Counted from the stretch's first letter, positions 2,465-52,380 are shown. The stretch: 64,000 nucleotides of DNA from Stellaceae bacterium (GCA_035533255.1 DATLUE010000028.1:59-64058); one strand, 5' to 3'. Numbers and translations: made by a program. The notes: generated by a model from the letters alone, not told the origin.

Positions 2465-2621
2465 CCCCGTCGGCGGGCCTCGCGGTCGAGACCGGGCCGC
2501 CGGCTGGTAATGGCCGGCGATCTATGTTACTTAACCGCCCTTCCGGCTCCGGCCCGTCGCCGAGCGAACGGAAGTCACACACAGCAAAGATTTGCGCGTC
2601 AATTTTGTCGAGGAACGAGTG

Positions 2622-2858
2622 ATGAGCGATGTCGCCGAGCGGGTAAAGAAAATCGTCGTGGAGCACCTGGGCGTCGACGAGTCCAAGGTCACCGACAATG
2701 CCAGCTTCATCGACGATCTGGGCGCGGACAGTCTCGACACGGTCGAACTGGTGATGGCGTTCGAGGAAGAATTCGGCTGCGAGATCCCCGACGACGCCGC
2801 CGAGAAGATCGTCACCGTCAAAGACGCCGTCCAGTTCATCGAAGCCCACCCGGCCTGA
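2622..2858 (+). CDS. acpP: acyl carrier protein
   Basis: 78 aa starting [12 protein letters not shown]. Contains the phosphopantetheine site [12 protein letters not shown]. Confidence 0.97.
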
Positions 2859-4135: not shown

Positions 4136-5116
4136 ATGCGGAAAGCGGCGCGCGCGGCGGGCGGGCTCGTGGCTGTCTTGCTGCTCGTCGGCGGCGCGCT
4201 CGCGATCGGCGCGCGCGATTACCGTGCGCCGGGACCGTTGCCGGCCGCGAAGATCATCGTCATCCCGAAAGGCGCCGGCGCGCGCGCGGTCGGCACGCTG
4301 CTCGCGGCCGCCGGCATCGTCGACAACGGCTATGTCTTCGCCGCCGGCACTTATCTGACCGGTCGGGCGCGCGGTTTGCGGGCCGGCGAGTATCAATTCG
4401 CCGCCGCCATCAGCCCTGCCGCCGCCGCCGAGCTGATCGATAGCGGCAAGGTCGTGCGCCACCGGCTCACCATTCCCGAAGGCTTGACCAGTGCCCAAAT
4501 CGTGGCGCTGGTAGACGCGGCGCCGGCGCTCGACGGCACGATCGATGCCGACCCGCCCGAAGGCACGCTGCTGCCCGACACCTATTTCTATGTGATGGGC
4601 AACACCCGGCAGGAACTGTTGGAGCGCATGCACCGGGCGCTGGAGAAGGCGCTGACCGCGGCCTGGGCGGCGCGCGCCCCGGACCTGCCGCTCGCCAGCC
4701 CGGCCGAAGCGCTGACCCTCGCATCGATCGTCGAGAAGGAAACCGCCAAGCCCGACGAGCGCCCGCGCATCGCCGGCGTCTATATCGAGCGGCTGAAGCT
4801 CGGCATGAAGCTGCAAGCCGATCCGACCGTGATCTACGCGCTGACCGACGGGGGTGTCGTTCCGCTCGGCCACCCGCTCGCTCACGACGATCTCGCTGTC
4901 GCATCGCCCTACAACACCTATCTCGCGAAGGGCCTGCCGCCGACGCCGATCGACAATCCGGGCCTCGCCTCGCTGAAGGCGGCGCTGCAGCCCGACGATC
5001 GCGGCGACCTTTATTTCGTCGCCGACGGCACCGGCGGCCACGCTTTCGCCAAGACCTTGGAAGAGCACAATCGCAACGTCGCCAAGCTGCGCGGCGCACA
5101 GGGCGGCGGCGGATAG
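4136..5116 (+). CDS. mltG: endolytic murein transglycosylase MltG (YceG family)
   Basis: 326 aa with an N-terminal TM. Contains [17 protein letters not shown] and SPYNTYL..GLPPTPI motifs typical of YceG/MltG. Lies directly after fabF, as in many bacteria. Confidence 0.9.
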
Positions 5117-49006: not shown

Positions 49007-49014
49007 TGGATTTC
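49007..49014. repeat. target-site duplication, left copy (TGGATTTC)
   Basis: An identical 8-mer directly abuts the outer side of both terminal inverted repeats. Confidence 0.8.
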
Positions 49015-49031
49015 GGTAGTGTCCTAATTTG
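49015..49031 (+). repeat. left terminal inverted repeat GGTAGTGTCCTAATTTG
   Basis: Exact reverse complement of 51703-51719. Confidence 0.9.
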
Positions 49032-49356
49032 ACCTCTCGTGAGCGAATCCGGCCGCAGCCCACGAAAGCGCGATACCTAGCAGAAGCACGACGACAGGTC
49101 CGCCGATAGCAATCGCAACTTCTATCCAAACGGTGCTAGACGTTCCTGATGCCGGTGTTCCAGGCATGGTTATCGTCCAACCACCCTGTTCTATCGTTTT
49201 CCCAGGTACGTATTTCGCAAAAGGATTTACGTCATCTGTTTGCGTTGGCGTCAGTTGATGGTCCCGCCAATCGCTAATGGCATAAGCGCCAACAAGCGCA
49301 CACCAGATCACAGACGCCAGCACCCAAAGTCGCAAAAGCCCGCGCCGCCAGTTCAT
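49024..49356 (-). CDS. cargo ORF: 110-aa two-TM membrane protein
   Basis: MNWRRGLLRLWVLASVIWCALVGAYAI.. with a C-terminal TM. The ATG overlaps the upstream ORF stop (ATGA at 49353-49356). Its own stop TAG (49024-49026) lies inside the left IR. Confidence 0.55.
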   Translation of the reverse strand: MNWRRGLLRLWVLASVIWCALVGAYAISDWRDHQLTPTQTDDVNPFAKYVPGKTIEQGGWTITMPGTPASGTSSTVWIEVAIAIGGPVVVLLLGIALSWAAAGFAHERSN

Positions 49357-49652
49357 TTGCTTCTGTGCTCCGCCACGATTGCCGCCCGCACTGCCGCCTG
49401 GGGCGAATCTATCCCGCCCATATGCAGCACGGCAAAGAACCGGCGCTTGTCGCTTCCCTCGATAGGGGATGACCAAGCATAGGCGCGGGTCGCATGGGGA
49501 TTGCCGGCAAGGTCGAAGATATGAACCATGCCATCCCAGACCGTCGCGCCTTGAAACGTCTCCTTGACCGGCACCGATTGCAGCAAGCGGGCTTTGCCCC
49601 CGTGCTGACTTTCGACGGCGACCTTAAGTTCGTCGGGATCGACTTCGGCCAT
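49353..49652 (-). CDS. cargo ORF: 99-aa soluble hypothetical protein
   Basis: MAEVDPDELKVAVESQHGG..AYAWSSP..FFAVLHMGGIDSPQAAVRAAIV. Translationally coupled to the membrane ORF. No family recognised. Confidence 0.55.
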   Translation of the reverse strand: MAEVDPDELKVAVESQHGGKARLLQSVPVKETFQGATVWDGMVHIFDLAGNPHATRAYAWSSPIEGSDKRRFFAVLHMGGIDSPQAAVRAAIVAEHRSK

Positions 49653-49668
49653 CGCGCTCCTAGCGATT

Positions 49669-49686
49669 CTAAATTAAGACACTATC
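49669..49686 (+). repeat. internal degenerate copy of the right-end repeat
   Basis: CTAAATTAAGACACTATC against CCAAATTAGGACACTACC (51702-51719): 15 of 18 identical, same orientation. Confidence 0.55.
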
Positions 49687-49845
49687 TGCTATAAGAGCAG
49701 CGGCCACGCCCCCGGGGCGGCTACCCCGATGGCGCGGCCAGACCCGCTTAGTCTAATAACGCGCGTTCTTTACGCACTGAGCACCTCGCGATCTCCGGCC
49801 CCTACAGCCGGTCTGGTTTAGCGGTCACCAACCGCCGATAGATGA

Positions 49846-49882
49846 GGGCCACGGGACAATTCTCGTGGCCCGATTCTTTTTT
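49846..49882. terminator. hairpin with T-tract (terminator-like)
   Basis: GGGCCACG (49846-49853), 10-nt loop, CGTGGCCC (49864-49871), then GATTCTTTTTT on the + strand. Lies immediately downstream of the minus-strand HARE-HTH-like ORF, and the T-run overlaps that ORF's stop codon. Which strand it serves is unclear. Confidence 0.45.
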
Positions 49883-50435
49883 AGGCCGCCGTCTGCTTAT
49901 CGGTAGCTTCCTCAATCTCAGCGGCGTCGTCGCCGGCATCGACATCATCGCTTCCCGGCGCTTCTTTCGGCGCCCTAAGATTCGGATACCAAGACCGGAG
50001 TCCGTACTTTCCGTTCTGAAGCTTCGCGAAGGTTGTCGTGTTTTTGCGCAGCATGGTGCGGAGCACGACCATTGCCGTTGCGTCGTCCTTTGCGCCGGAT
50101 TGAAACCCGCCTTCTTTAAGCGCATCGAAGATTTCGCGAGTCGTGGCAGGTTTATCGCCGCCACTGGCCTTTCGCATTTCCAAATACTCGCGGACAGCGG
50201 CGCCCATCTTCTTTCCGGCAAAGCTATCAGATTGGAGCTTGATCGGTGCGCCACTAGACCCTGCACTACCCTCGGACGATGCCGATGACAAGCCGCCAGG
50301 ACGAGGCGGTAGGCCCGCTTTCGACCGCAAAACATTGATGCTCGTCAAAAGGGCGTTCGCTTGGCGTTCTAGGTCAACATAGTCCTGCTCCAGCGCATCT
50401 ATCGCGGGCTGGAACGCGCTTGCGGGATTCGTCAT
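49881..50435 (-). CDS. cargo ORF: 184-aa protein with a HARE-HTH-like winged-helix segment
   Basis: Start MTNPASAF at ATG 50435 (GAGGAGA upstream). The segment TTREIFDALKEGGF..VVLRTMLRKNTTTFAKLQNGKYGLRSWYP resembles HARE-HTH (recollection-based). Acidic tail. Confidence 0.58.
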   Translation of the reverse strand: MTNPASAFQPAIDALEQDYVDLERQANALLTSINVLRSKAGLPPRPGGLSSASSEGSAGSSGAPIKLQSDSFAGKKMGAAVREYLEMRKASGGDKPATTREIFDALKEGGFQSGAKDDATAMVVLRTMLRKNTTTFAKLQNGKYGLRSWYPNLRAPKEAPGSDDVDAGDDAAEIEEATDKQTAA

Positions 50436-50569
50436 GGTTCTCCTCGTCAGGCCGCATTCGGCCTCTGAGGTTTGGTATAGACAACATTTTTGAAGAATGC
50501 AAATAAAATGTTTGCGCCGACGAATCGAGGCGAATATAGTGTCTCCAGACGAGCGCATTGGAACCAGCT

Positions 50570-51361
50570 ATGAACCGCACCCCTCTCGGCCGCCGCACCC
50601 AGATTATTCACTCGCTAGTTGAAGGTAATTCGATCCGCTCAACCGAGAGGCTGACAGATACCCATCGTGACACGATTACCCGGTTGATGGATGAGCGCAT
50701 GCGGGACGTGCAGTCGCGCCGTATCCAGGTTGATGAAATCTGGACCTACGTGCAAAAGAAGCAGCGACACGTCACTCGCGAGGATGACACGCGCCGCGTC
50801 GGCGATCAGTGGATTTTCGTGGCACTCGACCCCGATACCAAGCTCGTTCCGGCCTACCTCGTCGGCAAGCGCCGCCGCTACGATGCGGTTACGTTCATGG
50901 CCGATCTATCCGAGCGGTTGGCGAACCGCGTACAGCTTTCGAGCGATGCCCTCAGGACCTACGTTGACGCGGTTGAACGCGCTTTCGGTGCCGATGTTGA
51001 TTACGGGCAGGCGGTTAAATTTTACGAAGCTGAACCGATTGGCCCAGGCCGCTACAGCCCTCCCAGGGTTATGAGCCAAGAAAAGACCTTGATCGCAGGC
51101 AGCCCCGATCACGCCCATATCTCGACCTCACTTGTTGAGCGGCAAAATCTCACGATGCGGATGAGCATGCGCCGCCTTACGCGGCTGACGAATGCCTTTA
51201 GCAAGAAGATCGAAAACTTGCGCGCGGCCACGTCGCTGCACTTCGCCTATTACAACTTCGCCCGCGTCCATAAGACACTGCGCACGTCGCCAGCAATGGC
51301 CGCAGGGATCGAAAACCGGCTATGGTCGCTAGAGGAATTGGTGGAACGGACTTCACGATAG
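50570..51361 (+). CDS. IS1-family-like DDE transposase
   Basis: 263 aa. N-terminal HTH (RTQIIHSLVEGNSIRSTERL), RIQVDEIW, and VERQNLTMRMSMRRLTRLTNAFSKK..LHFAYYNFARVHKTLR (compare IS1 InsB [25 protein letters not shown]). Confidence 0.85.
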   Translation: MNRTPLGRRTQIIHSLVEGNSIRSTERLTDTHRDTITRLMDERMRDVQSRRIQVDEIWTYVQKKQRHVTREDDTRRVGDQWIFVALDPDTKLVPAYLVGKRRRYDAVTFMADLSERLANRVQLSSDALRTYVDAVERAFGADVDYGQAVKFYEAEPIGPGRYSPPRVMSQEKTLIAGSPDHAHISTSLVERQNLTMRMSMRRLTRLTNAFSKKIENLRAATSLHFAYYNFARVHKTLRTSPAMAAGIENRLWSLEELVERTSR

Positions 51362-51373
51362 CGAGGCGGGAAA

Positions 51374-51676
51374 ATGGCCTTCAACAACGGCAAGCCCTAT
51401 CACGGTTCATCGACCGTACAAGGGGGAAAACTGACAGGGACAACCGACACCGATTATTTTTACTTTTATTGCCCGAATTGCCAAGACAACCATGTGATGC
51501 GGATTCTCGACTATGCCAGTCACGGGAAGGAAGAGGCCGGTGGGGCGAACTATCCTGACGTGAGGCCGAAACAAGCGCGCGATTTTGTCCTCGTATTCAA
51601 ACTCTATTGCCCCACCTGCAAACTTACTGATTTCGTTAAAATTGGGAACACCGGATGGCAGGGCGGGCGAGTATGA
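51374..51676 (+). CDS. cargo ORF: 100-aa zinc-ribbon protein
   Basis: CPNC..(38 aa)..CPTC. Starts 12 nt after the transposase stop and ends 27 nt before the right IR. Confidence 0.55.
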   Translation: MAFNNGKPYHGSSTVQGGKLTGTTDTDYFYFYCPNCQDNHVMRILDYASHGKEEAGGANYPDVRPKQARDFVLVFKLYCPTCKLTDFVKIGNTGWQGGRV

Positions 51677-51702
51677 CACCAGCGCACCAGCGCCCTCAAT
51701 CC

Positions 51703-51719
51703 CAAATTAGGACACTACC
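51703..51719 (-). repeat. right terminal inverted repeat
   Basis: CAAATTAGGACACTACC is the reverse complement of 49015-49031. Confidence 0.9.
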
Positions 51720-51727
51720 TGGATTTC
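51720..51727. repeat. target-site duplication, right copy (TGGATTTC)
   Basis: Identical to 49007-49014. Confidence 0.8.
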
Positions 51728-51734
51728 TATACGC

Positions 51735-51774
51735 TTGACATCGTACGATCTCAATCATACGCTGTCCGTATGAT
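51735..51774 (+). promoter_or_regulatory. putative higBA promoter and operator palindromes
   Basis: TTGACA (51735-51740), a 17-nt spacer, then TACGCT (51758-51763). Palindrome TCGTACGA (51741-51748). Inverted repeat ATCATACG (51754-51761) / CGTATGAT (51767-51774) spans the higB ATG. Confidence 0.45.
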
Positions 51775-52063
51775 CCGGTCCGTTCTAGGAACGCCAACGC
51801 GGCGTTTCGTAGAGAGGCGAAAATCGCCGTTCTCGGGAATGGACGAGAAGGTCGCACGCCGTCGTTTGGCCCAACTTGATGCGGCGACATCCTTGAATGC
51901 GTTCGGCCGGCTGAACAGTGTCGGCCTGCACAAACTGACGGGTAACCTGCGTGGGTTCTGGTCGGTCGATATCAACGGTCCCTGGCGTCTCCTGTTCAAG
52001 TTCCGCGACGGCGACGCTTACGAAGTTCATATCGCGGATACGCATAGATGGAAGCGGTCATGA
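51770..52063 (+). CDS. higB: HigB-like toxin (RelE/ParE superfamily, killer protein)
   Basis: 97 aa. ..LHKLTGNLRGFWSVDINGPWRLLFKFRDGDAYEVHIADTH resembles HigB (..LHPLKGDREGYWSI..NWRITF.F.NGDAY..). Confidence 0.88.
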   Translation: MIRSVLGTPTRRFVERRKSPFSGMDEKVARRRLAQLDAATSLNAFGRLNSVGLHKLTGNLRGFWSVDINGPWRLLFKFRDGDAYEVHIADTHRWKRS

Positions 52064-52380
52064 CGAAAGACAAAGCAGTTTTTGATTATCCAAACGGCAT
52101 CCCGCTCGCGCCGGTTCATCCCGGCGAAACCCTCGCCGAGGAAATGGCCGCAAGACGACTCTCGTCCAATGCTCTCGCGCTCAAGCTTCGTACGCCGGCG
52201 AACCGCATTACGGAAATTATCGCCGGTAAGCGGGGTATCAGCGCTGAGACGGCGCTCCGGCTTGGGCGCTATTTCGGAACCGGGGCACAATTCTGGGTCA
52301 ATTTGCAGGCGAGATACGAACTCGCGATTGCCGAGCAAGAACTCGGCGCGATTATTGCCCGCGAGGTCGAGGCGGCTTGA
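52060..52380 (+). CDS. higA: HigA antitoxin (XRE-type HTH)
   Basis: 106 aa from ATG 52060, which overlaps the higB stop (ATGA). VHPGETLAEE..RITEIIAGKRGISAETALRLGRYFGTGAQFWVNLQARYEL. Confidence 0.9.
   Translation: MTKDKAVFDYPNGIPLAPVHPGETLAEEMAARRLSSNALALKLRTPANRITEIIAGKRGISAETALRLGRYFGTGAQFWVNLQARYELAIAEQELGAIIAREVEAA

Follow-up and report, generated by a model that had tools for sequence, protein, structure and literature searches.

The segment 49015–51719 of a 64,000-nucleotide (nt) stretch of DNA from a Stellaceae bacterium (the window, in which all positions are counted) is very probably a single integrated element, a transporter insertion sequence (tIS) that belongs to the IS1 family and carries genes unrelated to transposition between its own ends. 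Three observations lead to this assignment: a target-site duplication (TSD) flanks the whole 2705 bp, the same layout is found at other sites, and the cargo varies within identical ends.

The left and right terminal inverted repeats (IRL and IRR) form a perfect 17-bp inverted match with 0 mismatches, and an 8-bp direct repeat, TGGATTTC, abuts the outer side of each. At up to three mismatches the 17-mer has three matches in the window versus 0.01 expected from shuffled sequences. The G+C content is ~55–60% within the element versus ~66% in both flanks. Inside the element, we found the open reading frame (ORF) of the transposase and four further ORFs. The features are:

49007–49014, no strand: left copy of the TSD, TGGATTTC, identical to 51720–51727
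49015–49031, plus strand: IRL, GGTAGTGTCCTAATTTG, including the TAG that terminates the tm110 ORF
49024–49356, minus strand: tm110, end-slot ORF of 110 amino acids (aa) with two hydrophobic segments; variable cargo, stop codon inside IRL
49353–49652, minus strand: orf99, 99 aa, conserved companion of the transposase subclade, of no known family
49670–49686, minus strand: IR', an internal third IR-like site, GATAGTGTCTTAATTTA, with 3 mismatches, in right-end orientation
49700–49884, plus strand: predicted structured non-coding RNA gene, ~185 nt, six helices with covariation and an intrinsic terminator
49881–50435, minus strand: hare184, 184 aa, coiled-coil-like at the N-terminus, weakly matching the HARE-HTH (winged-helix) family
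50570–51361, plus strand: IS1-family DDE transposase, a single ORF of 263 aa (Pfam, NCBIfam, hhalign)
51374–51676, plus strand: zn100, end-slot ORF of 100 aa with two CxxC pairs (zinc-ribbon-like); variable cargo
51703–51719, minus strand: IRR, exact reverse complement of GGTAGTGTCCTAATTTG
51720–51727, no strand: right copy of the TSD, TGGATTTC

Mobility of the whole unit and its insertion site

We compared the element with 80 related loci (designated L with a number) from a scan of one genome per species and with further loci, such as L172, L183, L190 and L192, reached via protein look-ups. The identical 17-mer (0–1 mismatch) bounds elements of 1966–5350 bp in 15 of the 80 loci. Perfect 8-bp duplications flank 13 of these 15, every one a different sequence. 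Four more elements with the same ends and their own TSD were found in L172 (ACCTCGCT), L183 (CAAGCGCG), L190 (AACCCGTC) and L192 (GACCCGCC). This gives a total of 17 other elements of 2.0–5.4 kb, from unrelated genomes, that combine the same 17-bp end with their own 8-bp duplication. Among the hosts are Alphaproteobacteria, Desulfobaccales, a gammaproteobacterium, Methylomirabilales, Chthoniobacter and Acidobacteriaceae. Although the identity of the transposases is only ~50–77%, the ends are unchanged.

In the wider clade, a generic finder for inverted repeats and TSDs located GGTAGTG… ends in ~50 of the 80 loci, all with 8-bp duplications and 1966–5350 bp in length. End variants are GGTAGTGTCTCAGTTTGAA, GGTAGTGGGTCAGTTTGAA and GGTAGTGTCCTAATTTG. 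A plain IS of ~1 kb was not present among the bounded elements of the 80 loci, the smallest of which has 1966 bp. L190 and L192 contain the gene order of the window (small ORF, transposase, hare184, spacer, orf99, small ORF) within their own IRs and duplications at unrelated chromosomal sites. The composition, which an earlier reading made from the sequence alone (the sequence-only reading) could match to no described element, is thus not unique.

The element sits between a MetE-like gene and a higBA pair. In five metagenome loci with a MetE-like gene 73–82% identical to that of the window, a convergent gene of the metallo-β-lactamase (MBL) fold follows within 0–250 bp, with neither the element nor higBA in between; in the window, the MBL-fold gene stands right of higBA. 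Contigs encoding the exact flanking proteins all have the element or break within it. On plasmids we detected only distant transposase matches and two partial orf99 matches.

The sequence-only reading had described the perfect ends with their duplication as the product of a transposition event and had counted, in 2705 bp, a transposase ORF and four others as contents of a cargo-bearing element. The coordinates and ORFs are present in the sequence as described, the exception being the leftmost ORF, whose start is most likely the ATG at 49356 (110 aa). The transposition event is borne out by the 17 elements with the same ends and other 8-bp TSDs and by the syntenic relatives without the insert. 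The cargo does travel within the ends, and the same layout with a duplication around the whole unit recurs at other sites. We also looked in relatives for the same cargo genes at this locus without the repeats and saw none.

Several observations concern the surroundings and the state of individual copies. Directly right of the element, in a region of lower G+C content (~58%), lie the gene of a HigB-like toxin (51770 or 51839 to 52063) and that of an HTH_3 antitoxin (52048–52380); this higBA pair is absent from the five syntenic relatives. The right TSD ends 7 bp before a TTGACA in a palindromic stretch (51730–51759), which looks like a promoter/operator of higBA. The 3479-bp elements in L003 (2829–6307) and L008 (2603–6081) have perfect IRs without matching duplications, as expected from recombination between two copies or from decay of the flanks. 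L008 differs from L003 by one indel; orf99 is frameshifted in L003, and the transposase is split in L008 and L192. A nested IS with a DDE transposase-like ORF of 443–446 aa occurs in L004 (985–2325) and in L044.

The transposase and the state of the window copy

The transposase matches the Pfam model DDE_Tnp_IS1 (PF03400) with 29.5 bits (cut-off 24.1) over residues 183–215. The best NCBIfam match is transpos_IS1 with 47 bits over residues 9–136, under its cut-off of 100. On these scores it belongs to a divergent subgroup and is no equivalog of the enterobacterial IS1 protein. The identical protein carries the source name 'IS1 family transposase [Stellaceae bacterium]'. As a reference we used the real IS1A from an E. 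coli plasmid (L195), with InsAB' rebuilt across the annotated frameshift, and compared it by hhalign with an alignment of 19 clade members. The comparison resulted in a probability of 93.8% (E = 1.7e-7, 166 columns). The matched regions are the helix-turn-helix (HTH), MDEQWGYV versus VDEIWTYV and RWLFYAYD versus DQWIFVALD; a 24-residue block of IS1 is also paired with VERQNLTMRMSMRRLTRLTNAFSK. By the Pfam, NCBIfam and hhalign results, the transposase is homologous to InsB/InsAB' of IS1 (DDE with an ERxNLxxR…FSK block).

IS1 produces target duplications of 8–9 bp, and the duplications of the element and of its 17 relatives are 8 bp long. The ends of the element read GGTAGTGTCCTA… (short form compared with IS1, GGTAGTGTC) and start with GGTAGTG…, which conforms to GGnnnTG. 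The ends of the real IS1A are GGTGATGCTGCC… on the left and GGTAATGACTCC… as the reverse complement of the right end. Canonical IS1 differs in that insA and insB' are joined via a programmed -1 frameshift, as annotated in IS1A, whereas the window clade has one ORF of 263–274 aa. In addition, residues 1–53 of the IS1 protein, where its zinc finger is located, have no counterpart in the window clade in the hhalign comparison. Homology, ends and TSD agree with IS1, while the frameshift, the zinc finger and the NCBIfam cut-off do not. On this basis the element is placed in the IS1 family in a broad sense, as a divergent form with a single ORF that falls outside canonical IS1. The sequence-only reading had called the ORF an IS1-family transposase and had compared the ends with the GGT..TG start of IS1. 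Both statements stand: a failure to hit IS1 was not seen, and the real IS1A ends begin with GGTGATG and GGTAATG. Membership in the IS1595 family finds no such backing, since the window transposase matched neither PF12762 nor PF12760 nor an IS1595 model.

By matching the motif SSDALxxY to TDGWPLY of IS1, we arrived at a putative catalytic triad of D55, D126 and E190. All three residues are invariant in the alignment of the window transposase with 18 homologues. In this motif-based assignment, the distance from the putative second D to the E exceeds that in IS1 by ~40 residues, and hhalign is unreliable over this stretch. Separately, positions 50533–50549 (TATAGTGTCTCCAGACG), 20 nt upstream of the transposase start, have the 9-mer TAGTGTCTC in common with the IR variant GGTAGTGTCTCAGTTTG of other subclades. 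The site may be a fourth, vestigial end or a binding site.

All 18 aligned homologues have 273–278 aa, whereas the window transposase has 263. Immediately behind the HTH, an in-frame deletion has removed 11 residues (LVEVGxGCAKI), among them V, G, G and C at near-invariant positions. The exact transposase is on record at this locus only, in metagenome assemblies of one population (several samples). Because of the deletion and the single locus, the window copy is probably crippled or helper-dependent; it is an ordinary, possibly defective member of the clade.

A stronger version of this view is that the element was inserted by transposition and is now a dead relic, an immobile, fixed island of 2.7 kb. 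We rate the chances of this as about even. The deletion removes residues beside the HTH that all 18 homologues keep, the exact protein is confined to this locus in several metagenome samples, and the pair of ends has no second copy elsewhere in the 64-kb window. On the other hand, neither the ends nor the duplication have lost their perfect match and no ORF is broken, which dates the insertion or the deletion as recent. Moreover, the deletion preserves the reading frame and does not touch the DDE region. Finally, a helper copy elsewhere in the genome is possible, as 64–70 kb of the metagenome-assembled genome are visible.

Companion protein, structured RNA and variable slots

The protein encoded by orf99 is present next to the transposase in 13 of the 16 elements with the exact IR. 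A hidden Markov model detected it in 17 of the 80 loci, including every close relative with sufficient upstream DNA. In a large protein database we found 4517 homologues, all 'hypothetical' and without Pfam domains. An exhaustive profile search for fusions gave 3315 clusters at 50% identity, all of them short stand-alone proteins. The AlphaFold2 model is confident (predicted local distance difference test, pLDDT, 83.7) and shows an alpha-beta4-alpha fold. Foldseek gave no significant match in the PDB or BFVD, and nothing was retrieved from Pfam, NCBIfam, PHROGs, PADLOC or a PDB sequence profile.

The gene is always tightly coupled to its neighbours via overlapping stop and start codons. Upstream partners are AbiLii (L013), HEC-04 (L016), HEC-06 (L004/L005) and an AAA_14/DUF4143 ATPase (L012/L183). 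Alternatively, the partner is the downstream end-slot gene, as in the window, where the start of tm110 overlaps the stop of orf99 (ATGA). In L177–L179 (1554–3235), an IS1595-family transposase and a 259-aa gene lie between orf99 and the terminal IR. A role of orf99 as partner of an IS1595 transposase was considered and rejected; a nested IS fits better because the outer end is the usual 17-bp IR.

hare184 has 217 homologues at 62–85% identity, and its Pfam HARE-HTH match (E = 0.0076) is below the cut-off. It adjoins the transposase in L190–L194 and has a distant relative in L044. A universal core gene it is not, as jackhmmer over all element ORFs linked only L044; by this distribution, hare184 is core only to the window's own element type. 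The sequence-only reading had found no resemblance to transposition functions in any of the four ORFs besides the transposase. Two of them, tm110 and zn100, are by comparison of the loci the truly variable genes of the element. The other two, orf99 and hare184, are judged from their conservation to be companions of the transposase and not passengers.

Between orf99 and hare184 lies a conserved spacer, shared at 66–72% identity by six distinct elements (window, L003, L172/173, L177–182, L190/191 and L192–194) and conserved in part in L174 and L009. We rejected a small ORF in it, as none of the frames is free of stops and the start codons are not conserved. RNAalifold predicts 40 base pairs in six helices from the six-sequence alignment. 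In the alignment, 91.6% of the cells are paired, compared with 83.3% in shuffles (0 of 500 reach the observed value) and 33–48% when partners are slid by 1–3 columns. Compensatory changes occur in 12 of the 40 pairs, compared with 4.9 ± 1.5 in shuffles (0 of 500) and 2–4 in the slid controls. These values come from only six related sequences and from a structure derived from the same sequences, but the margin over the slid controls is large.

The predicted RNA is assigned to the plus strand of the window. Only this strand fits the invariant G-U pair, further G-U pairs and the terminator, a stem at 49846–49871 followed by a T-run. An extended -10-like TGnTA motif, TGCTATAAG at 49689–49696, is conserved at the 5' edge and places the putative RNA start near 49703. 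The most conserved block, TCTTTACGCACTGAGCACC, is nearly invariant and predicted to be unpaired. Rfam has no family for 49700–49884; the only hit is a partial match to scr4677 (14.6 bits, E = 0.8). We discarded the idea of an antisense or seed regulator of element mRNA, because shuffled controls reach the same best duplex energies and the sites differ per element. Another antisense function is conceivable. Between IR' and orf99 there is no room for a promoter, and the hairpin terminates plus-strand transcripts only; a leftward hare184 transcript could therefore continue into orf99, in which case the RNA would be perfectly antisense to it.

IR', which the sequence-only reading did not note, is separated from the downstream orf99 start by 17 nt and, relative to the predicted RNA start, covers approximately -17 to -33. 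It is found at the same position in L172 (GGTAGTGTCTCAATTTG), L177 and L192, is degenerate in L190 and is disrupted in L003. Because the RNA and IR' recur beside orf99 in relatives, the three constitute a conserved module in part of the subclade. IR' may be a transposase-binding operator over the divergent RNA/orf99 region or the relic of a former end. The operator function is suggested by analogy, because the IRL of IS1 covers its own promoter and is bound by InsA.

The outer slots are occupied by different genes in different elements. tm110 has no relative in any related locus and no family in Pfam, NCBIfam, PHROG or PADLOC. In the corresponding slot, L190 encodes a membrane protein of 85 aa with no relation to tm110, L172 a ClpP-like protein and L183 Rap1a. 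For zn100 we obtained only sub-threshold zinc-ribbon matches and no relative in the related loci; other elements have unrelated small ORFs in this slot. PADLOC gave no defence match for orf99, hare184, zn100 or tm110, and no tRNA-like gene was found in the window element. ORFs that run into either end of the elements stop at a TAG within the IR (CAAATTAGG; 49024–49026 in the window), and for this reason many unrelated cargo proteins and many transposases share a …SN C-terminus.

In the middle slot of sister elements, PADLOC detected HEC-06 (L004, E = 1e-155, with a homologue in L005), AbiLi together with AbiLii (L013) and HEC-04 (L016, E = 3e-203). Pfam matches in sister elements are an HTH with an ImmA/IrrE peptidase, a ClpP-like SDH protease, DUF433 and Rap1a. 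As the variable positions thus hold anti-phage systems and toxin-antitoxin-like genes, the clade, on this annotation, is a vehicle for accessory genes. The cargo is located in three defined slots, and the left end is marked, subclade by subclade, by a conserved small gene, either orf99 or C1. In distant subclades (L018–L082), where this gene is another than orf99, it starts ~5–80 nt from IRL in most elements and reads inward. C1 (74–105 aa, motif LGRxGGxKGGxARA..LS..R.EIA..AA..RW) occurs in 22 elements and the related C6 in 4; neither has a Pfam family. The geometry of C1 relative to IRL equals that of orf99 relative to IR'.

Some elements carry further RNA or regulatory features. L024 (4822–4896, minus strand) and L051 (4428–4514, plus strand) contain tRNA genes with the anticodon UUA, classified by ARAGORN as 'tRNA-Stop'. 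Their Rfam scores are 37.7 and 56.3 bits (gathering score 29). UUA would read the stop codon UAA, so these are possible suppressor tRNAs borne as transposon cargo. L017, an element from Desulfobaccales, has a c-di-GMP-I-GGC riboswitch aptamer ~115 nt in from its left end (2601–2683, plus strand, 70.8 bits, gathering score 59). The ORF downstream of the aptamer encodes 216 aa, hydrophobic in an N-terminal segment and at the C-terminus. In L014, L015 and L017, 3' ends resembling tRNA or transfer-messenger RNA (…GGGGTTCGATCCCC…CTCCAC) lie 40–110 nt upstream of the transposase start. ARAGORN did not call them, and in L017 positions 4845–4911 match the mascRNA model below threshold. L003, L006, L008 and L016 have a divergent promoter-like region upstream of the transposase, a palindrome TGTATGCA…TGCATACA around TTGACA. 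It adjoins a small divergent gene, with which it probably forms a repressor/operator pair. The window has no equivalent.

With regard to the function of the module, we tentatively propose, at somewhat less than even odds, that orf99 and the RNA would serve the element, by regulating transposition or by maintenance, and not the host. The wider proposal, that RNA, IR' and orf99 make up an unrecognised transposon control or addiction system governing a large clade, is rather doubtful.

The position of IR' also bears on the integrity of the unit. Since IR' is in right-end orientation, IRL and IR' are an inverted pair around orf99 and tm110. Furthermore, orf99 reads inward from IR' as C1 does from IRL in distant subclades, and IR' of L177 matches the IR variant of another subclade at 15 of 17 positions. 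The segment could thus consist of two juxtaposed pieces, a transposase-less IR cassette of the mobile-insertion-cassette type (49015–49686) and a one-ended transposase segment (49687–51719), the last event having merely used the outermost ends. We regard this as unlikely. L172, L190 and L192 show the tripartite layout again, each time enclosed as a whole by a duplication; it is thus inherited as a single unit. In L190 and L003, IR' has become degenerate or disrupted, the inner unit is flanked by no 8-bp repeat, and no stand-alone IR-orf99-IR cassette was seen among the fetched loci.

A similarly low probability applies to a reading of orf99, the coupled small membrane protein and the divergent RNA as a hok/sok-like addiction or abortive-infection module, that is, as cargo that stabilises the element. 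It would explain the overlap of orf99 with the start of a small membrane-protein gene in the window (ATGA) and in L190. In addition, the RNA starts ~50 nt upstream of orf99, antisense to any leader transcribed from upstream, and nearby cargo in sister elements is of the defence or toxin-antitoxin-like type. Downstream of orf99, however, a membrane protein is not the constant partner; L172 has a ClpP-like protein there and L183 Rap1a, while L013 and L016 have no partner at all. Most elements with orf99 lack the RNA, the orf99 ribosome-binding site lies outside the predicted RNA, and PADLOC reported no match.

Finally, coincidental repeats around native genes of the locus are practically excluded by the 17-mer statistics (0.01 expected per window), the identical ends in dozens of unrelated genomes, the syntenic relatives without the segment and the G+C difference from the flanks, with nothing found in favour.

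Proposed transposition and comparison with known systems

For the integrated tIS we infer the following steps from the biology of IS1. The HTH-DDE transposase would bind the two 17-bp ends and cut at their GG termini. It would then join the ends to a target cut with an 8-bp stagger, and gap repair would yield the TGGATTTC duplication. The comparison with the relatives shows that the whole 2.7-kb unit was inserted between the MetE-like gene and higBA. Its layout comprises a conserved leftward module next to IRL (RNA gene, degenerate IR', and orf99 coupled to a variable small gene), hare184 in the middle and then the transposase, followed by the second variable small gene.

A number of points weigh against this reading. 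The mobility is read from sequences alone. The empty site that the sequence-only reading had proposed to search for was found at the level of synteny in five loci, but the exact site was not: the reconstructed 22-nt junction ATCGTTTTGGATTTCTATACGC has 0 matches in the metagenome contigs. The syntenic empty sites belong to other species and likewise lack higBA. The canonical IS1 features (zinc finger, insA/insB frameshift) are absent, and the NCBIfam score stays under its cut-off. ISfinder lists an IS1 subgroup (ISMhu11) with members reaching ~4.6 kb, and a named relative may exist there. As for the module, the roles of orf99, the RNA and IR' are deduced from position and conservation, and orf99 is without a detectable relative of known function or fold. 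The conserved block of the RNA has no complement inside the elements better than shuffled controls, and the decay of IR' in L190 and L003 would argue for a relic and not for a required site.

IS1 is usually treated as a minimal element of 768 bp, whereas in the sampled environmental branch all bounded elements carry extra genes. A small DDE IS could thus spread immune genes such as AbiL, HEC-04 and HEC-06, alongside Tn7-like elements and genomic islands. If this holds, the invariant 17-bp ends with three slots would make the clade an important and so far overlooked vehicle by which anti-phage genes move among soil bacteria. If the proposed function of the module is true, an RNA and an orphan-fold protein would govern how an IS1 clade transposes or is retained, a clade of more than 8000 transposase homologues and 3315 orf99 clusters in many phyla. 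Orphan protein and covarying RNA could then reveal a new type of self-regulation or stabilisation of a DDE transposon. In a literature search, we found no description of orf99 or the RNA and no paper mentioning ISMhu11, IS1-family defence cargo or this clade.

The closest relative among known systems is IS1 of E. coli itself. Its HTH and DDE regions are homologous to those of the window transposase, with MDEQW in place of VDEIW and a 24-residue block in place of VERQNLTMR…FSK. Its ends start with GGTGATG and GGTAATG (GGTAATGAC) in place of GGTAGTG. The clade elements are, however, 2–5 kb long compared with 768 bp, and IS1 has neither a conserved companion protein or RNA nor variable cargo.

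Structured RNAs of comparable type are RNA-OUT of IS10, art200 of IS200 and the hok/sok-type antisense RNAs. Like these, the predicted window RNA is a short structured transposon RNA with a promoter-like motif and a terminator, and it lies divergently to the leader of an element gene, to which it may be antisense. It differs in lying clear of the transposase start, in its size of ~185 nt with six helices, in having no Rfam family and in the lack of any target complementarity found.

Mobile insertion cassettes and elements like MITEs (miniature inverted-repeat transposable elements) resemble the sub-unit from IRL to IR' (49015–49686), which likewise has inverted IS ends around genes and no transposase. 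In contrast to such cassettes, the sub-unit lies at the end of a transposase-bearing element, without its own duplication and with an inner end that decays in relatives.

Passenger genes are familiar from other families, and IS1595 has passenger-gene subgroups. The concept of the tIS, in which passenger genes inside one pair of IS ends move with the IS, has been described (PMC9330008, PMC7986276). The window element likewise has non-transposition genes in one pair of ends that would move with the transposase. It differs from described tIS in that, in the 80 loci, bearing cargo is the rule and not the exception (none under 1966 bp), and in that the cargo occupies three defined slots, with a conserved left small gene, orf99 or C1, per subclade. 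The literature searched contained no account of such features. New compared with the known tIS are therefore cargo as the rule, ends that are invariant across phyla, defined slots, and an orphan protein together with a covarying RNA.

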